Source of the DNA: Candidatus Staskawiczbacteria bacterium
GTDB lineage: Bacteria; Patescibacteriota; Minisyncoccia; Minisyncoccales; Staskawiczbacteraceae
Length of the DNA stretch: 10,376 nt
NCBI GenBank assembly: GCA_903913175.1
Contig: CAIWKF010000068.1
Coordinates: 1 to 10,376, forward strand
Direction of reading: 5' to 3'
Below are positions 1,007 to 9,740 of the stretch, piece by piece (positions within the stretch are counted from its first letter, which is position 1; each line of letters begins with the position of its first letter). Below the pieces are notes generated by a model, which searched no databases, was not told where the DNA came from, and saw only the letters and a list, made by a program, of their open reading frames with translations. A program made the translations under genes and the position numbers.

Positions 1007-1573
1007 TTATTCTTTTGACACTATCATTGTAAAACCCTTTGGTTCTCTTTTTAACTCTCTTTCAACTTTAATTGAAATTAGTTTGTCTATGGTTTCTAAA
1101 AACGATATAATTTTATTTTTAGCAAATTCTCCCATAGCTTTTTCTCTTCCCTTTAAAACCATGCTTACTTTTATTTTGTCTCCATCTTTTAAAAATCCTT
1201 CTGCTTGTTTGGCTTTTGTTTCTAGGTCATGTACTGAAATATTAAAACCAAGTCGTATTTCTTTTAGTTCTGTTCTAGTTTTTATTTTAGCTTTTCTTTC
1301 TTTTTTTTGTAAAGAATAAAGATATTTTCCATAATCTCCAATTCTACAAACAGGTGGCTCAACCTTTTCTGTAACTTGTATTAAATCTAAGCTTTTGGTC
1401 TTAGCCAAATCAATGGCCAAAAATATATCCATTACGCCCAGCTGTTCGCCAGTTTCTGAAATAACCCTCACCTCTTTTGCCTTTATATAATTGTTTATTA
1501 AAACTTTATTTTGCAAAGCTTGTTTTTTTAATATTAAAATATGTGGAATCGCCGAGATTGAACTCGGGTCCAA
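1007..1573 (-). CDS. infC: Translation initiation factor IF-3. The ORF as drawn starts at TTG 1571-1573. The true start may be a non-canonical ATT/ATA at about 1532-1549, as in many infC genes
   Basis: Motifs INNYIKAKEVRVISETGEQLGVM...VEPPVCRIGDYGKYLY...KEIRLGFNISVHDLETK match IF3 N- and C-domains. There is no ATG at the 5' end. The ORF-track M comes from TTG. ATT codons sit at 1547-1549 and 1538-1540. Confidence 0.88.
   Translation of the reverse strand: MDPSSISAIPHILILKKQALQNKVLINNYIKAKEVRVISETGEQLGVMDIFLAIDLAKTKSLDLIQVTEKVEPPVCRIGDYGKYLYSLQKKERKAKIKTRTELKEIRLGFNISVHDLETKAKQAEGFLKDGDKIKVSMVLKGREKAMGEFAKNKIISFLETIDKLISIKVERELKREPKGFTMIVSKE
1552..1567 (-). promoter_or_regulatory. GC-rich hairpin (CCGAG-6nt-CTCGG) at the extreme 5' end of infC, just upstream of the candidate ATT start codons
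   Basis: Read directly: ccgagattgaactcgg. It is GC-rich in an AT-rich context. Its position fits a translational autoregulation or initiation-region structure. Confidence 0.3.
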
Positions 1574-1889
1574 AAGTTTTTCTAAAATAATTCTACAAAT
1601 TTAGTTTGCTTTTTTGTTCGAGTAATAGATAAAAAACAAACGAAATTTCTATTACCTTATCTCCAATTGTTTTTAATAATTTCTCGGAGAAAAGAAATTA
1701 TCTATCCTAATTATATAACACCTTTAATCCACCTATTAGGAGTGAATGGCAAAGATGGCACTAAGCGTATGCTAGTGCTGGTTGTCTATTAAATAAATTG
1801 GCAACTATATGTTTTCCTGAAAGTTTTACCAGGTTTCAGAATACTGGATTTGCCTTATTTTAAAAAGAACAATTGTCGAAACTTGCGAT
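1574..1889 (-). promoter_or_regulatory. Long non-coding leader upstream of infC-rpmI-rplT. Candidate structured regulatory RNA (L20/IF3 autoregulatory-leader analogue)
   Basis: About 390 bp with no ORF of 60 aa or more on any frame. It contains mutually exclusive helices at 1815-1850 (cctg/cagg, ctgaaa/tttcag, ccag/ctgg) and an imperfect 11-bp stem at about 1600-1645. L20-mediated leader control of infC operons is established in other bacteria. Confidence 0.25.
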
Positions 1890-1925
1890 CCCGCCCGCAA
1901 CGCTTCGCGTAGCGATGCGGGCGGG
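1890..1925. repeat. GC-rich compound hairpin: 10-bp perfect stem CCCGCCCGCA/TGCGGGCGGG enclosing an inner CGCT-tcgcgt-AGCG hairpin
   Basis: Read directly. It is about 80% GC in a roughly 29% GC genome. It lies 40 nt downstream of the GIY-YIG stop (minus strand). There is no adjacent U-run, so it is not a canonical terminator. Confidence 0.6.
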
Positions 1926-2214: not shown

Positions 2215-2679
2215 TTATCTACTTAATTCACGGTTGATTTCCCTCTCGGTATCTCTTTGTTTGATTTTTTCTTTCTTATCAAACTTTTTTTTACCGCGGG
2301 CTAAAGCGAATTCAAGCTTTATCTTACCACTATTATCATAAACTTTCAAGGGTATTAAAGAAAAACCTCGTTCTTTTGACTTGTTGGCCAAATAATGTAT
2401 TTCTTTTTTATTTAAAAGTATTTTTCTTTGGCGCTCTGAGTTATAATCAGCTGGAGCGTTATTGGGTTGGTAGGCGGGTATTTTACTGCCCACTAAACTG
2501 GGTTCAAATTGCATATTAAAAACAATATAAGAACCAGTCAAAGAAATGTGCCCACCTCTTATTGATTTTACTTCTTGTCCTTGTAAAACAAAACCAGCCT
2601 CATATTTTTCTATAATTTCATAATCATAATATGCCTTTTTGTTCTCAGTATAAATTTTCTCGTTTTGTGTGTTTTTCAT
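2215..2679 (-). CDS. smpB: SsrA-binding protein SmpB
   Basis: YYDYEIIEKYEAGFVLQGQEVKSIRGG..SL.GSY and the C-terminal basic tail match SmpB. The ORF is open up to 2727. The ATG at 2677-2679 (MKNTQNEK...) gives the canonical N-terminus. The upstream extension is encoded by the GC-rich element. Confidence 0.88.
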   Translation of the reverse strand: MKNTQNEKIYTENKKAYYDYEIIEKYEAGFVLQGQEVKSIRGGHISLTGSYIVFNMQFEPSLVGSKIPAYQPNNAPADYNSERQRKILLNKKEIHYLANKSKERGFSLIPLKVYDNSGKIKLEFALARGKKKFDKKEKIKQRDTEREINRELSR

Positions 2680-2686
2680 TTTTTTG

Positions 2687-2720
2687 TCATTGCGAGAAGC
2701 CCGCAGGCGCCGAAGCAATC
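2687..2720. repeat. GC-rich element tcattgcgagaagcccgcaggcgccgaagcaatc in the smpB 5' UTR (ATTGC...GCAAT outer inverted repeat, internal GAAGC direct repeat)
   Basis: Read directly. It is about 60% GC in an AT-rich setting. It shares GCTTCG...TGCGGGC core motifs, in opposite orientation, with the hairpin at 1890-1925. Confidence 0.45.
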
Positions 2721-2763
2721 TCTTCATATTCTACTGTATCATTTTTTTCTTCTCTTGAAACCA

Positions 2764-2792
2764 TTGACAAGCAATAATTATTATGATATAAT
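2764..2792 (+). promoter_or_regulatory. Consensus sigma70 promoter TTGACA, 17-nt spacer, TGaTATAAT (extended -10) driving the SPFH gene
   Basis: Read directly: perfect -35 and -10 hexamers with a 17-nt spacer and a TG motif, about 100 nt upstream of ATG 2895. Confidence 0.6.
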
Positions 2793-2894
2793 TAATTATG
2801 TAAAAAATCTGAGGTTTGTGCCTTAGATATAAGGGTTTTCTTGCCCTTTAACAATTTAGTTTCTGTTTCACCGTTTGCCCTAAGGAGAATTGTT

Positions 2895-4166
2895 ATGTCC
2901 GATGTAGTCAAATTTTTGCTCGTGTTGTGCACCGTAATGGTTACGTGTGCTATTTTGACCCTCCCCTTCGCCCTTTTACCATGGTGGATTGCATTAATCA
3001 TTGATGTAATCGTTGTGGTAACATTTCTGGTGTTTTTTATTCGGAATGGACTCCGAAAAATTCCTGCAGATCCTCCACACAAGGCTATCTTTGTTCTTTT
3101 GGGAGAAAGAACAAATACGGTTATTAATGAGGGGTGGCATTTTTTTCCGATTTGTCCATTTGTTTCTGACTACATCTTAATTAAAACCGAAAAAGTTAAT
3201 TATGATTTGCCAGAGCAACAAGTTCGAACTCCGGACAAGGCAATGGTGGCGATAAAGTCAAGTATCACTTTTATTCCAGGTATTGATAATAGTCCGGGAT
3301 CGTTCCTGTCCTATTTGAACTCTGGAGGAGAAGCTGGAGTAAAAAAAATTCTTCAGGATATCATTGACGATAGAACAAAGACATGGGCATCTTCAAACAC
3401 CGAAGGCCCTGCTTCTTGGACTGAGGCTCAGTCAATGAAGGATGATGTCCACAGTGTGCTTGTTAAGTCAATTTTAGGTGATGCGTTGCCTAATATTGAC
3501 TCGGACATTCCAACTGCTACATTGATGCGTTTTTTAAATGCTCCGAAGTCTCCACCGACTAAATATGATGCTACCAAAAAAAATGGGTGGGCAGAAATAA
3601 AAGGAGACGGTGATTGGAACTGGGACAAGCTTCAAGGCAAATTTGATGGTTATTCGGTTGAAAAGCAGAAAGCCATCAAGGCGGCCATCAAACAAAGGCG
3701 TGAAGATGTTCGTGCTATTCGCGAAGGCAAGGCAATATTTGGTGATGTGAGTTTGGGAATCACAATCATCAGGTTTACAGTTAATGATCTTAAGGTTCTT
3801 GGTGCGGTCGCCGAAGCCGCTGAAAAGGAAGAAAAGGAGAATCGCGAAAGAGCCGCAGAAACAGTTGAGATTAACAATGTGGCTGATAGGGCCAAGGATC
3901 TTAAAACTGCGCTTCCAGGACTTTCTTCTCAAGAGGCACTTGAGATTGTTCAAACCGAACGTGGAAAGATCTCAAAGAAGGTGATTCATGTCAGTGGCGC
4001 CCAAAGTGGGCTGGGTCATGACCTTCTTGGTCTGTCTGGTGCTGGCGGTCTCACCGGAGGTGGTGGCATGCCTACCGGACCTACTAGTGGATCTCGTGGG
4101 GCCGAACCAAAGATGACAAAGGAAAAGACTAAGAAGCCTTTTGTCAGGCCTGAGGATATGGTCTAG
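2895..4166 (+). CDS. SPFH/band-7 (stomatin/flotillin/HflK-like) membrane protein with an N-terminal TM hairpin, a coiled-coil EA/KE-rich segment and a Gly-rich C-terminal tail
   Basis: The SPFH core reads PADPPHKAIFVLLGERTNTVINEGWHFF...VSDYILIKTEKVNYDLPEQQVRTPDKAMVAI. The N-terminus has two hydrophobic helices. A strong SD (AAGGAGA) lies 7 nt before ATG 2895, and this in-frame ATG is preferred over the ORF-track start at 2841. GC is about 43-50% against a roughly 29% background. Confidence 0.85.
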   Translation: MSDVVKFLLVLCTVMVTCAILTLPFALLPWWIALIIDVIVVVTFLVFFIRNGLRKIPADPPHKAIFVLLGERTNTVINEGWHFFPICPFVSDYILIKTEKVNYDLPEQQVRTPDKAMVAIKSSITFIPGIDNSPGSFLSYLNSGGEAGVKKILQDIIDDRTKTWASSNTEGPASWTEAQSMKDDVHSVLVKSILGDALPNIDSDIPTATLMRFLNAPKSPPTKYDATKKNGWAEIKGDGDWNWDKLQGKFDGYSVEKQKAIKAAIKQRREDVRAIREGKAIFGDVSLGITIIRFTVNDLKVLGAVAEAAEKEEKENRERAAETVEINNVADRAKDLKTALPGLSSQEALEIVQTERGKISKKVIHVSGAQSGLGHDLLGLSGAGGLTGGGGMPTGPTSGSRGAEPKMTKEKTKKPFVRPEDMV

Positions 4167-4190
4167 GTTGTTGTCGCGTGTAACAACAAT
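4167..4190. other. Stem-loop TTGTTGT-cgcgtgta-ACAACAA immediately after the SPFH stop codon
   Basis: Read directly. It precedes the canonical terminator, and may be a processing or stability element or part of a tandem terminator. Confidence 0.4.
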
Positions 4191-4219
4191 GCCGAGCATG
4201 GATAGCTCGGCATTTTTTT
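4191..4219 (+). terminator. Rho-independent terminator GCCGAGC-atggata-GCTCGGC followed by a T8 run
   Basis: Read directly: a perfect 7-bp GC stem plus a T-run 25 nt after the SPFH stop. The reverse complement also gives a weaker terminator for the convergent 197-aa gene. Confidence 0.8.
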
Positions 4220-4243
4220 GTAGTTAAAATTTTACTCTTTTAT

Positions 4244-4837
4244 TTATTCAATTGGCTCTCTGTAAGTGTCATTTTTTTGAGGATCTTGTTGTTTTTCTTT
4301 TACTATTTCTAGTGTTTTTTTAAATATTTTTTCTGGTAATTCTATTTTTATGTCTGGTTTAGGGCTTTCTTGGTTTGGAAAAGATCCAATTGGTGGTCTT
4401 AATTTAGAAATAATTTCTGATTGAGTTTCTGGCGGTTTATATTTGTCCTCCTTAATTGGTAGCGGTTCTTTTAAGTTTTGTACAATTGGTAAAATTACTA
4501 ATTTTATATCATTAGCAATTTCTTCTGCATTTTTTTTTGAAACCATTAATGATTTTTCTACAGCATTAGCTATATCACCAAATTTAATTATTTTATCATT
4601 AATATCTTGTGCAATGGTAATAATTTTTTGCCCATTTGTTTCAACAGAATTTGAATTTTGTGTTTCTATTTGCTGCGAATTTTCTGAGGTATCAGGGCTT
4701 TCAAGTTCTTGCTCTGGGCTTGCCTCCCCCACAAAAAGTTCTTCTACTAAATTATATTTTTCTAATAAAGCAGAAATTGCCAAACCTAATTCTACTGAGA
4801 AAAATGTGTCATTTATTGTGTTATTTAATTCTTCCAT
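4244..4837 (-). CDS. Hypothetical acidic, Pro/Glu/Gln-rich soluble protein (197 aa), downstream of and probably co-transcribed with the 897-aa membrane protein gene
   Basis: A long ORF with no TM segments and net acidic charge, lying 27 nt downstream of the 4865-7558 gene on the same strand. No recognisable family. Confidence 0.65.
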   Translation of the reverse strand: MEELNNTINDTFFSVELGLAISALLEKYNLVEELFVGEASPEQELESPDTSENSQQIETQNSNSVETNGQKIITIAQDINDKIIKFGDIANAVEKSLMVSKKNAEEIANDIKLVILPIVQNLKEPLPIKEDKYKPPETQSEIISKLRPPIGSFPNQESPKPDIKIELPEKIFKKTLEIVKEKQQDPQKNDTYREPIE

Positions 4838-4864
4838 AATAATTTTAAATTACTTTTTATTACT

Positions 4865-7558
4865 TTAATCTTGTTTTTGTTGTTTTTCTGCAAGATCTAT
4901 CATTTTTTTTAAATGCTCTTCTGCTTTCCTCATTTTATTAATTTCTTCATTGTCTATTGGTACTGATATGCGCTCAGTTTCTGGCGCTAGGGAGTATTCG
5001 TTTACAGAAGGATTGTCCAAAGGGGTTTTTAAATTATTAGTTTCTGCTACAGGTTTTTTTGCATCGAAAAAATTTGCACCCTTTAAAGATTCTCGGTATT
5101 CTTCTCTTCTATTTTTTCCCCAAGCCATAGTGTCTTTAATTTTTTGAGTGCTTTCTAATTTATCAATTGACTGTACAGCCTTATCAATTTTATTTCCAAC
5201 ATAATTTTTTGGTATTTCAATAATTGACTCTGCTTTCTCTTTTGATGCCCTTAGCATGGACTTGGCTCTCCCTTTTGTTTTTGCCACAGTTCTTCTGACT
5301 TTTTGGTAATTCATTGGATTTAGCTTTCCTATAAATCCAACTTTATCAGCAAAATCTTCTACATTTTTAGTAGATGGCATGCCAAATTTTTTAGGATCTA
5401 GGCCGCCACTTTCATCTTCTAAAAGACCACCACCAGAAGAGCTTCCATCATCATCAGAATCATCGTCTGCTGAAGTAGAAGAAGCACCTTCATCTTCATC
5501 ATCTATGTCTTCATCTTTTTTCTTTTTTCTTTTTTTCCATTCACAGTTTCTAATAAATGCTGAGTTATAATTTAATTTTTTACCACCTTTTTCATCTTTA
5601 AGTTCATTTAATTTCTCTCTATGCGTTTTAGCATCTCCTACAAGTTCGAATTTACCATCATCTCTTTTTTTAACCCGAGATAATTCCATCATTTTGGCTT
5701 TTACTTTTTCTGGACCATTTGTTATAATTTCTGTCATTTGTTTTGTATCCATTGCGCCTAAGACTTCAGGGGTAAGAGTAAAGGCATTAAGATTTTTTCT
5801 AAGTTCAACAGCACCTTGTTTTTGAACAGTGTCGGTAATTGATTGATTTTCAGCACGCTCACGAATTTGTTTTTTATTAAGACCCTCCTCTGTCCATGCT
5901 TTGCTATTATTATCAACGATTTTATCAACTGCTGGGGCATCAAATTTAGACAAATTAGCATTCTTTCTCTTGTTTTCACTGGTAAGCGTAAATCCATTTT
6001 TCTGTGCCAAAGCAAGAGCTTTTTTGTCAGCCTTATTATTAGTATCAAACTCACCTTCTTCAACTAAAATTCTACCTATAGCAGACATTTCTTTTTGCTG
6101 AGAAGCTGTATACGGTAATCGCTGTGAGCCAAGTTTATCTTTGTAGGCCTTCAGATCTTTCATAGGCATGCTTGATAATCTATCATATTCTTTCTTAGTA
6201 CTTTCTTTTGTTCTTTGAGAATATGTTCCTTTAGGAACAAAACCCATAGCCTCACCAGCTCTGATTGATTGATTTTGCATGTATTTAGTAGCCTTTGATA
6301 CGCCGGTTACATCAGCAACTTTATTTGCTGTTCCTTTTAATGCTCCCATACCAGCTCCGCCCAGCATTGCTTTGCCTTTGTTAAAATAATTGCCAGCTTT
6401 GCTAGTAATCATATTAGCACCCATAGCACCAGTCTTTAAAGAGAATAAAAATCCAGCAATTAAAAAGAAAGAAGGCACAAGGTAGCCAAGCATTTCTAAT
6501 CCAGTACCAGAAGCTGAAGTTGCAGTACTATTTTTAGTTAAAAAATTCTCAGTCATTTTGCCTGACAAATATATAAAAAATGCTGCTGGTGCCCCAATAA
6601 TGCACCACTGAAAAAAATTATTCCACCACATTTTAAAATATTGATTTGTAAACGGGAATACATAAAACACAAAAGCCAATGGGGAGAGTATAACTAAAAT
6701 CCACAGCATAAGATATCTCATTATAAATAAAAAGAAAAATAAAAGAAAAACTATTGTTAACATTATATTATAAAAAACAGCACTAACTGCTTTGGCAATT
6801 ACCATAGATGAGTTGTTTGTATCCCACCCAGCCCAAATTTCAGTTAATTGATCTGTGACATTTTTTACAGCACTTTTTTCAAAAAATCCACCGTCGCCCT
6901 TAATAAAATAATCTGTAACTATGTTTGAACCGTCAATAAAAACTCCGCAAATTACTAAAGAAAAATTTATTAAAATAGCTGCACCAATTAATTTTGGTAA
7001 AAGTTTTTTTGCTTCATAGTCTTGAAATCTTAAAATTGTAGCAAGGGCAATTACCACAAAACCTAATACAACTATCATATTTGCAAGATTTTGCACAATT
7101 GGCCAACCAGTAGCAATTACTTTATTATCAAAACACGTATAACACACCGCAGAAGTTGTTCCAAGTACTGTAGAAAGTAAAGTTGCCGACATGCTTGCCA
7201 ATGCTCCTGTTGCGCTTATAATAGCGCTTATAACAAACAATAATAAACCAGTAGCAAACACCTTAGCTGGGTCACCGGCTATATTCGCAACAGCTTTATA
7301 ATTTGCATCTGCAGCGGCGCAAAGATCATTTCTATATGTTCCTGGCGTGGCTTTGCCCCAAGCCCATTCCCAACAAGCAGGGTGATAGCCAGCCGTTACA
7401 ATTTTTGGTATTATTATTCCGCTTAAAACAAAAAACAAAAGAATAAGAATAAAAAATCTTTTGTTTTTAAAAACGCTAGTAGTAATATGTGAGATGCTTT
7501 TTGAAAAGTTTTTAGATACTTGTTTTATATTGAGAAATATTTTTGATAAAATTTCCAT
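4865..7558 (-). CDS. Large polytopic membrane protein (897 aa). It has an N-terminal signal-anchor, a Cys/Trp-containing extracytoplasmic segment, about 8 TM helices, and then a roughly 520-aa charged low-complexity C-terminal domain with a poly-K block and a D/E/S-rich block. The architecture resembles VirB6/TrbL/TcpH-type proteins
   Basis: A single uninterrupted ORF. Hydrophobic stretches sit at about aa 36-58, 100-135, 160-180, 195-215, 265-305, 318-336 and 362-380. The C-terminal half is hydrophilic (KKRKKKKDEDIDDEDEGASSTSADDDSDDDGSSSGGG). Family assignment is inference from architecture only. Confidence 0.85.
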   Translation of the reverse strand: MEILSKIFLNIKQVSKNFSKSISHITTSVFKNKRFFILILLFFVLSGIIIPKIVTAGYHPACWEWAWGKATPGTYRNDLCAAADANYKAVANIAGDPAKVFATGLLLFVISAIISATGALASMSATLLSTVLGTTSAVCYTCFDNKVIATGWPIVQNLANMIVVLGFVVIALATILRFQDYEAKKLLPKLIGAAILINFSLVICGVFIDGSNIVTDYFIKGDGGFFEKSAVKNVTDQLTEIWAGWDTNNSSMVIAKAVSAVFYNIMLTIVFLLFFFLFIMRYLMLWILVILSPLAFVFYVFPFTNQYFKMWWNNFFQWCIIGAPAAFFIYLSGKMTENFLTKNSTATSASGTGLEMLGYLVPSFFLIAGFLFSLKTGAMGANMITSKAGNYFNKGKAMLGGAGMGALKGTANKVADVTGVSKATKYMQNQSIRAGEAMGFVPKGTYSQRTKESTKKEYDRLSSMPMKDLKAYKDKLGSQRLPYTASQQKEMSAIGRILVEEGEFDTNNKADKKALALAQKNGFTLTSENKRKNANLSKFDAPAVDKIVDNNSKAWTEEGLNKKQIRERAENQSITDTVQKQGAVELRKNLNAFTLTPEVLGAMDTKQMTEIITNGPEKVKAKMMELSRVKKRDDGKFELVGDAKTHREKLNELKDEKGGKKLNYNSAFIRNCEWKKRKKKKDEDIDDEDEGASSTSADDDSDDDGSSSGGGLLEDESGGLDPKKFGMPSTKNVEDFADKVGFIGKLNPMNYQKVRRTVAKTKGRAKSMLRASKEKAESIIEIPKNYVGNKIDKAVQSIDKLESTQKIKDTMAWGKNRREEYRESLKGANFFDAKKPVAETNNLKTPLDNPSVNEYSLAPETERISVPIDNEEINKMRKAEEHLKKMIDLAEKQQKQD

Positions 7559-7598
7559 AAACTTTATTTGCTAAAATTATTAAGGCATAAATTATATA

Positions 7599-7627
7599 AT
7601 TATAACTCCATTTTAAAAAACAAGCAA
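7599..7627 (-). promoter_or_regulatory. sigma70-like promoter on the minus strand (TTGCTT, 17-nt spacer, TATAAT) for the 897-aa gene
   Basis: Read directly as the reverse complement: aagcaa at 7622-7627 and attata at 7599-7604. The leader to ATG 7558 is about 35-40 nt. Confidence 0.45.
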
Positions 7628-7687
7628 ATCAATTTTTGATACCACCTGTGGATAACTATTCTAGGGTTGAGGGTGCAGTGTTGTACC

Positions 7688-8548
7688 TTAGCCCGTAAAA
7701 CTGCTTGACAATGCGATCCAGTTTTGAACTGACAATGTCTCAGCTCGCCTAGTGGGTTCTATGCCACATCCCAAAAGCCATTCTTTAGTCTTTGTTCTGT
7801 CTAACTTTAATTCTTTAGATAAATTATTTGCCAGTTGTTTTCTGGCATGAGAAAACCCAGCTTTAACTACTTTAAAAAATTTTTCTGCATCTTTTGGATT
7901 TTTATTAGGTTTTTGTGGAATGATTTTTATTATTGCTGAATCAACTTTTGGAGAAGGCAAAAAACAATTTTTAGAAACATAAGAAATTATTTTTGCCTCT
8001 GCATAATATTGCACAGAAACAGAAAGCAAACTCATGTTTGCCCCCACACTAGAAGTTTTTTTAAAACTTTGGTGTTGGGGCAAAGGGCAAATTCTTTGAG
8101 CTACTTCTTTTTGGACTAGTAAAACAATTTCTTGTGGTGGATTTTCTGCTTCTAGCAAAATTCTAATTAAATGAGAGGTAAGATAATAGGGAATGTTTGC
8201 TACAACTTTATAAACTTTATAACTTGATAACTTTATAACTTCTAATGCATCACCTTCAATTACTTCTATATTATCAAATTTAGATAAAGTTTCAGATAAA
8301 ATATTTATCATAGTGTGATCTTTTTCTATGGCAATTACGCGCTCTGCATTTTTTGCCAGCTCCTGCGTTAGCACACCAATACCTGGGCCAACTTCTAAAA
8401 CAACATCACTTTTATTTAAATCCCCAGCTTTTATTATTTTGTTTAAAATATTTTTATCAATTAAAAAATTCTGACCCATTGTTTTTGATGGTTTGGCGTC
8501 AAATTTTGCTAAAAGTTCTTTTATAACTGTGGGAGAAGTTAATTCCAT
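7688..8548 (-). CDS. rsmA: 16S rRNA (adenine1518/1519-N6)-dimethyltransferase RsmA/KsgA
   Basis: Motifs GQNFLIDKNIL, VLEVGPGIGVLT and VANIPYYLTS are SAM-MTase/KsgA signatures. The ORF is open to 8668, but ATG 8546-8548 (MELTSPTVIKELL...) gives the canonical length (286 aa). The upstream part overlaps the divergent promoter region. Confidence 0.88.
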   Translation of the reverse strand: MELTSPTVIKELLAKFDAKPSKTMGQNFLIDKNILNKIIKAGDLNKSDVVLEVGPGIGVLTQELAKNAERVIAIEKDHTMINILSETLSKFDNIEVIEGDALEVIKLSSYKVYKVVANIPYYLTSHLIRILLEAENPPQEIVLLVQKEVAQRICPLPQHQSFKKTSSVGANMSLLSVSVQYYAEAKIISYVSKNCFLPSPKVDSAIIKIIPQKPNKNPKDAEKFFKVVKAGFSHARKQLANNLSKELKLDRTKTKEWLLGCGIEPTRRAETLSVQNWIALSSSFTG

Positions 8549-8615: not shown

Positions 8616-9740
8616 ATGGCAATGAAGAAAGTTATCTTTTTTCTCTCTAAAAAAATTAAAAGCAGCAAATCTCGGGGGTTATTTAAAAACCCTTTGTTTT
8701 ATTGTGGTATAATTTCTCCAATTTTGTTGGGAGTAATTTGTTTTGGAAGCAACAGTTTTGCAGGTTTTAACAACAGTAGCTTAAGATCTAGCGACATTGT
8801 TTTTTTTAATACTTTCTTTAATAAATATTCTGATAGTGAAAAAAACAATCCTTTTATGACAACAAATAACCAGTTGGCCTTAGAATCACCTGATTTAAAA
8901 ATAGTAGAAGATAATTGTCTTTGTGCAGTTTCTCCGCACAGCATTGTTTCAACAAAAGTTTTAGGAGCTATTTTTGGAGAGACCGTACAAAACACCAAAG
9001 AAATTCAAGAATATGTTGTACAACCTGGTGACACCATTGCTTCAATTGCGCAAAGTTTTGAAATTACACCAGATACAATTTTATGGGTAAATGATTTAAC
9101 TAAGAGTTCAACAATTAAAGTTGGCCAGTCTTTGGTTATTCTGCCAATTACTGGTTTATTACACATTGTAAAACAAGGAGATATTATAGGCGATATTGCT
9201 AAAAAATATAAAGTAAAAGTAGATGATGTAGTAGCTTTTAATAGTTTATCAAATGAGGGAGATATTTTTATTGGAGATATTTTAGTTGTTCCAGGAGGAA
9301 TAATGCCACAAAAAGCTGTACCACTAATTTCTGGACAAACACAACTTGCAGACAATTTTTTTATTTTTCCAACTCAAGGAACAATTACTCAGGGGTCACA
9401 TTTCTTTAATGCAGTAGATGTGGCCAATAAATGTGGAACGCCAATTTATGCAGCAGCTGGCGGGGTTGTGCAAAGGGTGAGATATGGCTGGAATTATGGT
9501 GGTGGAAACAATATTACAATTTTACATTCAAATGGAGTGGTTACATATTATGGCCACATTATGTCATCTTTTGTGATTCCTGGTCAAAGAATTGATGTTG
9601 GAGACAGGGTTGCTTTAATGGGCGGAGGAGTGGGAATGGCAGGAGCAGGTATTTCAACTGGTTGTCATACACATTTTGAAGTTATTGGAGCTAAAAATCC
9701 TTTGTCAAAATATTTGCTTGGCACAAAAATAAAATACTAA
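8616..9740 (+). CDS. Membrane-anchored LysM-LysM-M23 (LytM/lysostaphin-like) peptidoglycan endopeptidase
   Basis: There is an N-terminal TM/signal (LFYCGIISPILLGVICFGSNSFA). Two LysM repeats are present (YVVQPGDTIASIAQSF... and HIVKQGDIIGDIAKKY...). The M23 motifs HxxxD (SHFFNAVDV) and HxH (CHTHFEV) are present. The ORF-track start is TTG 8598; I prefer ATG 8616, or ATG 8622 if the mRNA is leaderless. Confidence 0.85.
   Translation: MAMKKVIFFLSKKIKSSKSRGLFKNPLFYCGIISPILLGVICFGSNSFAGFNNSSLRSSDIVFFNTFFNKYSDSEKNNPFMTTNNQLALESPDLKIVEDNCLCAVSPHSIVSTKVLGAIFGETVQNTKEIQEYVVQPGDTIASIAQSFEITPDTILWVNDLTKSSTIKVGQSLVILPITGLLHIVKQGDIIGDIAKKYKVKVDDVVAFNSLSNEGDIFIGDILVVPGGIMPQKAVPLISGQTQLADNFFIFPTQGTITQGSHFFNAVDVANKCGTPIYAAAGGVVQRVRYGWNYGGGNNITILHSNGVVTYYGHIMSSFVIPGQRIDVGDRVALMGGGVGMAGAGISTGCHTHFEVIGAKNPLSKYLLGTKIKY

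Follow-up and report, generated by a model that had tools for sequence, protein, structure and literature searches.

What is a block of three membrane-associated genes doing between smpB and rsmA, and to which machine do its products belong? The question is raised by a stretch of 10,376 bp from Candidatus Staskawiczbacteria bacterium (contig CAIWKF010000068.1 of assembly GCA_903913175.1; Patescibacteriota), hereafter the window, which according to the database record for the 197-aa protein encoded on it is an entire contig. An earlier note on this DNA had proposed that the block (2764–7627) could be a previously undescribed envelope or cell-contact module. Instead, it appears to be one end of the chromosomal type IV secretion system (T4SS) of Patescibacteria that was published in 2025 (PMC12102498), a membership that we consider very probable. 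Two of its products, an SPFH/Band-7 protein and the 197-aa protein (p197), are candidates for subunits of that system.

Three intact open reading frames (ORFs) lie between smpB and rsmA, just as they had been described, at 2841–4166 on the plus strand and at 4244–4837 and 4865–7558 on the minus strand. They are taken to be real genes and not chance ORFs because each has homologues: 654 for the 897-aa product of the last ORF, 87 for the SPFH protein, and 100 sequences or 8,398 clusters for p197. The features of the block are the following.

2764–2792, plus strand: predicted sigma-70-type promoter of the SPFH gene (TTGACA, 17 nt, TATAAT, with a TG extension; 12 of 12 consensus matches)
2895–4166, plus strand: SPFH/Band-7 membrane protein of 423 aa (mechanical ORF from TTG 2841; Pfam Band_7 and a Shine-Dalgarno sequence)
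4188–4214, no strand assigned: hairpin terminator separating the converging genes of SPFH and p197 (stem of 10 bp, 6 of them G-C pairs)
4244–4837, minus strand: p197, small, acidic and cytoplasmic, encoded 27 bp past the end of VirB6
4865–6433, minus strand: charged, poorly conserved C-terminal extension of the 897-aa protein, residues 376–897 and the stop codon (by composition)
6434–7558, minus strand: VirB6/TrbL-like polytopic membrane domain, residues 1–375 of the 897-aa protein

Identity of the 897-aa protein

The largest product of the block had been assigned to an unrecognised family, a description that no longer holds, since Pfam family matches, a TrwI-like fold and the genomic context all make it VirB6/TrbL-like. 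Because profile matches, fold and gene context agree, we assign it with high confidence to the VirB6/TrbL family, to which TrwI of R388 and VirB6 of Agrobacterium belong, in its "extended VirB6" form. A large protein collection holds 654 homologues. Nearly all come from Patescibacteria of Parcubacteria type, such as Staskawiczbacteria and Nealsonbacteria; many match PF19590 (TrbL_3) or PF04610 (TrbL/VirB6), and NCBI lists one of them as a "type IV secretion system protein". The exact window protein has a precomputed PF19590 TrbL_3 match (E ≤ 1e-5), and Pfam TrbL (PF04610) is matched by 19 of the 33 aligned family members, with a best value of 2.9e-9. An AlphaFold2 model of residues 1–460, built with 120 homologues in the alignment, reached a mean predicted local distance difference test score (pLDDT) of 83 with long helices across the membrane region, and the top five Foldseek matches in the PDB were all R388 TrwI/VirB6 chains (probability 0.99–1.00, E 0.014–0.23). 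The protein was also described correctly as polytopic with a charged tail of roughly 520 aa: hydropathy and the model place 6–8 hydrophobic helices in residues 36–375. It differs from TrwI of R388 (PDB 7O3V, 8RT9), with which it is 10–15% identical, in being three times longer owing to the 520-aa charged tail and in having an N-terminal Cys-containing extracellular segment, and it has no sequence-level link to any of the solved VirB6 proteins. The family shows no resemblance to PrgH of pCF10. To our knowledge, there is no VirB5 partner in monoderm systems.

The tail from residue 441 holds 91 K+R and 80 D+E in 457 residues and does not align with that of a relative 56% identical over the membrane domain. 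In the segment just after the last helix the family averages 12.3 K+R vs 5.4 D+E, a charge distribution that favours a cytoplasmic tail; the tail is thus probably cytoplasmic, although hydropathy and charge counts are insufficient to fix the topology of the protein. F-plasmid TraG also counts among the extended VirB6 proteins, which join a membrane domain to a large hydrophilic C-proximal region. The protein shares with the VirB6 paralogues of Rickettsiales at least 5 hydrophobic helices and a large hydrophilic C-proximal domain, whose role is unknown (PMC12857230). On the other hand, its tail is low-complexity, fast-evolving and unrelated in sequence, and varies from ~100 to 600 aa in length among close relatives.

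Gene order in relatives and the published T4SS

Eighty loci from GTDB species-representative genomes were retrieved with the VirB6 family alignment, ORFs were called in them and iterated hidden Markov models were used for each neighbouring gene. Counts take the loci with enough flanking sequence (82 loci), and the sequence comparison comprises 83 sequences including the window; single loci are given below by L numbers. The closest long contig, L001, carries the VirB6 that is 56% identical over the membrane domain and reads LysM-M23 (minus), rsmA (plus), a small PaaX_M-like gene, VirB6 (plus), a 199-aa protein (plus) and then a convergent 491-aa membrane protein (minus), from which PrgI/VirB3, a TraC-like (TrsD) protein, the VirB4 ATPase and large proteins lead onward. 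The conserved string is M23 peptidase, rsmA, VirB6, p197, SPFH (convergent), VirB3/PrgI, TrsD, VirB4 and large surface proteins. Co-occurrence across related genomes, a test that the earlier note had itself proposed, was found for p197 (70/74 loci) and for an SPFH-domain gene in the convergent slot (39/63), and the string extends to PrgI (49/57), TrsD (47/55) and VirB4 (43/50) on one side and to rsmA (57/70) and the M23 peptidase (56/67) on the other. PrgI and P-loop_TraG were confirmed by Pfam in syntenic relatives, and the Patescibacteria VirB4 profile matches PrgJ of pCF10 at 3.9e-52. The genes smpB, GIY-YIG and NUDIX adjoin the block in the window only.

Quinonero-Coronel et al. (2025) described a chromosomal T4SS in Patescibacteria, a relative of the monoderm MPF-FATA conjugation machinery (PMC12102498). 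It contains VirB4, TrsD, VirB3/PrgI, VirB6, VirB1-like hydrolases and arrays of VirB2-like pilins, usually with no relaxase; KsgA (= RsmA) is among the most frequent virB4 neighbours, in Paceibacteria VirB4 is accompanied by VirB1-like proteins that have M23/LysM domains, and the T4SS genes are dispersed in some lineages (PMC12102498). Because the gene families and the rsmA/KsgA setting match this description, the block is regarded as part of a known system and not as a new module. The published system shares with the block and its relatives VirB6, VirB3/PrgI, TrsD, VirB4, an M23/LysM hydrolase and VirB2-like pilins, as well as the chromosomal site next to ksgA/rsmA and the lack of a relaxase, whereas the window contig carries the VirB6 end only. 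Pfam scans of eight window proteins (four translation genes left out) found no relaxase domain. In Southlakia epibionticum, the one species tested, the homologous T4SS cluster (SEML1_0006-0019) proved essential to epibiotic growth (Wang et al. 2023, PMC10633639), and the role of the Patescibacteria T4SS was called "completely unknown" in a 2024 perspective (PMC11665869). Neither the SPFH gene nor the p197 family is mentioned in the main text and two supplement files of PMC12102498 or in the main text of PMC10633639.

Linkage of the SPFH gene to T4SS genes

An SPFH-anchored search was run to avoid the bias of a VirB6-based choice of loci. SPFH homologues on long contigs lay beside T4SS genes in all four look-ups (4/4). 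Scanning metagenomes with a pattern for SPFH alone gave 53 loci, 10 of which end at or near the SPFH gene and are uninformative, leaving 43 with sequence beyond it. VirB6/p197/PrgI/TrsD/VirB4 genes are found in 17 of these 43, and convergent arrays of 2–5 small VirB2/TrbC pilin genes in the other 26; all ten array ORFs tested were T4SS_pilin/TrbC above the Pfam cut-off. The SPFH family thus adjoins T4SS genes in 43/43 informative loci, with no counter-example. The expectation in the earlier note that the SPFH protein is tied to a partner membrane machine was therefore borne out, the machine being the T4SS, a cell-contact apparatus. The usual partners had been reported missing, and indeed neither NfeD nor FtsH is present in the window (ORF list, Pfam), nor was such a partner found in the gene tables of L001 and L084–L087. 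The adjacency of SPFH and T4SS genes looks new, as the literature searched gave no paper linking SPFH proteins to the Patescibacteria T4SS.

Shorter members (~300–370 aa) of the same SPFH family were observed at a distance from the VirB4 cluster, where they converge on arrays of 2–5 divergent VirB2/TrbC-like pilin genes (L086:10480–12050, L087:9710–12471 and L104–L137). In L086 and L087 a co-directional 150–218-aa gene of no known family overlaps the SPFH stop codon.

SPFH proteins have been connected with secretion before, as in HP0248 of H. pylori with the Cag T4SS, FloA of S. aureus with the type VII secretion system, and the detergent-resistant membranes of Agrobacterium. With HflK/HflC-FtsH, QmcA-YbbJ (NfeD), FloA and HP0248 the window-type protein shares a Band_7 domain, an N-terminal membrane anchor and a charged helical region. 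The genes of FloA, HP0248 and other known SPFH scaffolds lie outside secretion clusters and their action is broad, whereas the window-type SPFH is genetically tied to T4SS genes; it also differs by an insert of ~110 aa inside the SPFH domain and by having no NfeD/FtsH partner in the gene tables.

The SPFH protein and its gene

The plus-strand gene was rightly read as encoding an SPFH/band-7 protein (Pfam Band_7 8.6e-10, 39.4 bits vs a cut-off of 23.6). The match covers profile positions 7–106, and the rest of the domain follows after the ~110-aa insert. The architecture consists of an N-terminal hydrophobic hairpin, the SPFH domain with its family-specific insert, a charged helical stretch and a Gly-rich tail. 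The anchor is a hydrophobic stretch of ~43 residues (7–49 of the 423-aa form) followed by RNGLRK; by the positive-inside rule the hairpin would have both ends in the cytoplasm, and this charge distribution favours a cytoplasmic SPFH domain. The start is most likely ATG 2895, since an AAGGAG Shine-Dalgarno sequence lies 6 nt upstream. The earlier note had assumed an organism lacking such sequences, which fails for the SPFH gene with its canonical AAGGAG (2880–2897); the VirB6 start has no obvious one. The predicted promoter is a consensus match and the best site in the scanned region, and its first base is position 2764, where the block had been taken to begin. The hairpin at 4188–4214 is followed by a T run on the plus strand, which makes it a clear terminator in that direction; its minus-strand tail is partly T-rich.

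The family comprises 87 homologues, all of Patescibacteria type and all with PF01145. The window-type protein occupies the convergent slot in 9/83 sequences compared (window included), and a second family, the p491 type, occupies it in 38 other sequences and is also SPFH (Pfam Band_7 down to 6.5e-11). The 491-aa slot protein of L001 was tried as an orthologue of the window SPFH and rejected: the BLAST match was weak, hhalign aligned 38 C-terminal columns, and Pfam indicates different SPFH subfamilies. According to hhalign, the two types share a C-terminal motif alone. Both types stand in tandem beside VirB6 in L033, L092, L096, L101, L102, L139 and L140, an arrangement reminiscent of HflK/HflC heteromers; the window has one SPFH gene.

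The SPFH gene has a GC content of 0.44 vs about 0.30, and its GC content at third codon positions (GC3) is 0.38 vs 0.12–0.30 for every other window gene, ribosomal protein genes included. An excess of GC3 over the neighbours of +0.14 to +0.17 was found for SPFH-type genes in 47/47 loci (both SPFH families; L003–L082). Since the excess is seen in all loci examined, the raised GC is not a sign of recent transfer, and recent horizontal transfer of the gene is ruled out by this family-wide pattern. The GC3 excess is accounted for by neither recent transfer nor simple expression-linked codon bias.

The p197 family

The p197 gene follows VirB6 after 27 bp on the same strand, and the two are probably on one transcript. 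Its product is acidic, Pro/Glu-rich and soluble, as had been read from the sequence, with no transmembrane segment, 37 D+E vs 23 K+R, and 15 Pro. The family consists of a conserved helical N-terminal domain, a variable disordered Pro/Glu linker and an invariant C-terminal tip, D-x-Y-R-E-P-I-E, with which 61/73 family members end and not one of the ~6,200 remaining ORFs (6,243 screened). The AlphaFold2 model (pLDDT 70) shows helices at 15–27 and 68–123, with pLDDT > 90 for residues 70–120. An iterated profile places the family usually directly after VirB6 and sometimes just before PrgI. A sequence search gave 100 homologues, and the profile run against 1.84 billion representative proteins gave 8,398 clusters, 2,914 of them at E ≤ 1e-10.

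p197 has no match among the families of Pfam, NCBIfam, PHROG and PADLOC, the last three of which were of no help with the other two proteins either; Pfam on 93 family members gave scattered single sub-threshold matches alone, and Foldseek found no fold match for the model (best E 3). Each of eight pCF10 accessory proteins (PrgD, E, F, G, L, M; PcfA, B) was compared and rejected, with an hhalign probability ≤ 0.2%. The JGI label "DNA anti-recombination protein RmuC" was likewise rejected and is probably wrong, as Pfam RmuC is sub-threshold (E 0.015, 14.8 bits vs a cut-off of 26). p197 thus represents a large unannotated family with an invariant tip that looks new. By analogy of architecture, and not by homology, it resembles the single-stranded DNA-binding protein (SSB), which also has a folded N-terminal domain, a disordered linker and a short conserved C-terminal peptide. 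SSB docks partner proteins via its conserved acidic C-terminal tip. Unlike SSB, p197 has no oligonucleotide-binding (OB) fold and no sequence or structural similarity to it.

A proposed mechanism

We propose that a Patescibacteria-specific SPFH cage, enclosing VirB6 and VirB2-like pilins, and p197 as a tethered adaptor are dedicated, unrecognised T4SS subunits, a proposal whose chance we put slightly below even. The broader claim, that both SPFH and p197 function as parts of the T4SS, is somewhat favoured over its opposite, and the specific mechanism that follows is tentative, clearly the least secure of the three. VirB6 of R388 is a membrane platform where pilin subunits are recruited from the membrane. 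Likewise, the VirB6 of the block would form a membrane platform or channel at which VirB2-like pilins are extracted from the membrane and polymerised and through which substrates pass. Since the SPFH gene adjoins either VirB6 or pilin arrays, the simplest reading is that its product would organise the membrane step joining VirB6 and the pilins: held by its N-terminal hairpin, it may oligomerise as a ring or cage, keep VirB6 and the pilin pool within one microdomain and so help to assemble, stabilise or gate the machine. p197 would act as a cytoplasmic adaptor, its flexible acidic linker presenting D-x-Y-R-E-P-I-E to a conserved pocket of another subunit, for which the ATPase, the VirB6 tail or the SPFH protein are candidates, while the LysM-M23 peptidase would open the cell wall locally.

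Alternative readings

Several observations weigh against this proposal or against the assignments beneath it. The 10,376-bp contig lacks VirB3, TrsD, VirB4 and any pilin gene, and synteny with relatives ends right after the SPFH gene, beyond which smpB, GIY-YIG, tmRNA, infC, rpmI, rplT and rpsT follow to the contig end. The 897-aa protein gave nothing at E ≤ 0.1 in a direct scan of current Pfam-A and NCBIfam, and no VirB6 came up when PDB sequences were searched with profiles from the VirB6 family alignments, the matches being to the low-complexity tail alone (e.g. huntingtin, Mediator 15). The case for SPFH and p197 as parts of the T4SS is built on gene linkage and architecture, and the effective number of SPFH-anchored loci is lower than 43 because some are near-duplicates from related samples. 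Additionally, an SPFH-domain gene is absent from the slot in ~38% of VirB6 clusters and so is not obligatory there, and the three SPFH proteins of Agrobacterium are not needed for T4SS function (PMC8656257). These last two points would suit an SPFH protein of general membrane quality control or microdomain type (HflK/C- or QmcA-like) with no dedicated secretion role, which is the usual role of bacterial SPFH proteins. Such a role appears quite unlikely, however, given that the family always lies beside T4SS genes (the VirB6 cluster or pilin arrays) across deeply diverged lineages with 31–55% identity, that two SPFH subfamilies occupy the same slot, sometimes in tandem, and that no FtsH or NfeD is seen in the gene tables mentioned above. 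As for p197, its small folded domain, long disordered region and exposed invariant C-terminus, encoded within a T4SS cluster, could equally describe a universal substrate of the system, with the invariant peptide as translocation signal. T4SS substrates typically have C-terminal signals. Those signals are nevertheless usually basic or loosely defined and not an invariant 8-residue acidic/aromatic motif, and so wide a conservation, with a helical domain and no enzymatic fold, would be unusual for a substrate; we rate this role as unlikely, though less so than a general one for the SPFH protein.

If the system works, its ATPase arm and pilin genes must lie elsewhere in the genome. The block could otherwise be a remnant whose ATPase arm was lost and whose VirB6, p197 and SPFH are decaying or were repurposed for a membrane function other than secretion: the 4.8 kb that follow VirB6 lack PrgI, TrsD and VirB4, which 86% of relatives carry there, the SPFH/smpB junction is unique among the 83 sequences compared, and rearrangement is seen elsewhere, at the equivalent breakpoint of L085. 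Conversely, all three ORFs are intact and full length, every family-invariant residue is kept, and the predicted expression signals of the SPFH gene (promoter, Shine-Dalgarno sequence, terminator) are strong, which is why a split locus is favoured over decay. The arm is also absent at this position in at least L029, L049, L071, L076 and L085, which fits a split locus, as does the dispersal of T4SS genes in some lineages (PMC12102498). Decay or repurposing is accordingly rated improbable, marginally more so than the general role of the SPFH protein. In L085 an rve-family integrase/transposase (7022–7903) lies beside the SPFH gene, in the very place of the missing VirB3-TrsD-VirB4 arm, and is a possible cause of split T4SS loci.

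By far the least probable reading, with hardly any chance of being right, is that of a self-contained SPFH-centred envelope module of unknown kind that was inserted at ssrA/smpB as accessory DNA, the hot spot invoked by the earlier note. It has in its favour that smpB and tmRNA are next to the block, that the SPFH gene is compositionally distinct (its GC content having been given above) and that standard family libraries hold no direct match for the two minus-strand proteins. It fails because the block is anchored by synteny to rsmA, M23 and T4SS genes and not to smpB, which adjoins it in the window only; because the tmRNA gene has its 3' end towards infC and its 5' end towards the block, with GIY-YIG and smpB in between; and because the window shows no integrase, no flanking direct repeats longer than chance and no duplication of the tmRNA 3' end. 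The compositional argument is itself countered by the finding that SPFH-type genes exceed their neighbours in GC3 at every one of the 47 loci.

Neighbouring genes and further observations

The window has a GC content of ~30%, and the order along the contig is rpsT, rplT, rpmI, infC, tmRNA, GIY-YIG ORF, smpB, three-gene block, rsmA, LysM-M23 peptidase and NUDIX hydrolase. Features flanking the block are the following.

1541–1892, minus strand: tmRNA gene (Rfam, 104.7 bits; tag ANLFNRQPALAYA)
2215–2727, minus strand: smpB (Pfam SmpB 2.4e-46)
7688–8548, minus strand: rsmA/ksgA (mechanical ORF to 8668, with ATG 8548 the probable start; Pfam RrnaAD 1.1e-54)
8616–9740, plus strand: LysM-LysM-M23 peptidase, divergent from rsmA (Pfam LysM 3e-22, Peptidase_M23 1.1e-17)

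The rsmA gene is the upstream neighbour of VirB6 on the same strand, with 129 bp between them in the window; since no consensus promoter was found in this interval, the two genes may be co-transcribed. From its position, the LysM-M23 peptidase is inferred to be a candidate cell-wall hydrolase of the T4SS in the role of VirB1. In L083, a 5-kb strain-level variant with an identical NUDIX protein, an extra 118-aa gene (4582–4938) of 23S_rRNA_IVP / bAvd type, absent in the window, stands between rsmA and VirB6; the bAvd fold serves accessory proteins of diversity-generating retroelements. At the other end of the window, the tmRNA gene overlaps the mechanical infC ORF (1007–1573) by ~30 nt, and the true infC start is probably a downstream non-standard codon; a look-up with the TTG-started infC product gave no match.

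Two further observations concern the relatives. Small polytopic membrane proteins (100–200 aa) with a "SPEG[IV]LML" motif are encoded just upstream of VirB6 or downstream of VirB4 (L003:9401–9709, L004:18070–18555, L017:9618–10019 and ~35 other loci); they belong to no Pfam family and are absent from the window. In L011, L034, L061 and L078 the VirB4 ORF has ~1,265 aa, about twice the usual length, which suggests that it is fused to the gene that follows, or else a sequencing frameshift in the opposite direction.

Meaning for the Patescibacteria T4SS

The analysis removes a false lead, that of a new envelope module. Current annotation calls both p197 and the VirB6-like protein "hypothetical", and they can be named simply from the conserved order of the genes. 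The linkage of the SPFH gene to VirB6 or to pilin arrays points to the step of pilin extraction or pilus assembly in the membrane, and the invariant C-terminal peptide of p197, a widespread small protein, is usable as bait in binding experiments. If the proposal is true, a secretion system would for the first time be seen to encode an SPFH scaffold of its own, and both the SPFH protein and p197 would belong to the machine that epibionts need for life on their hosts.

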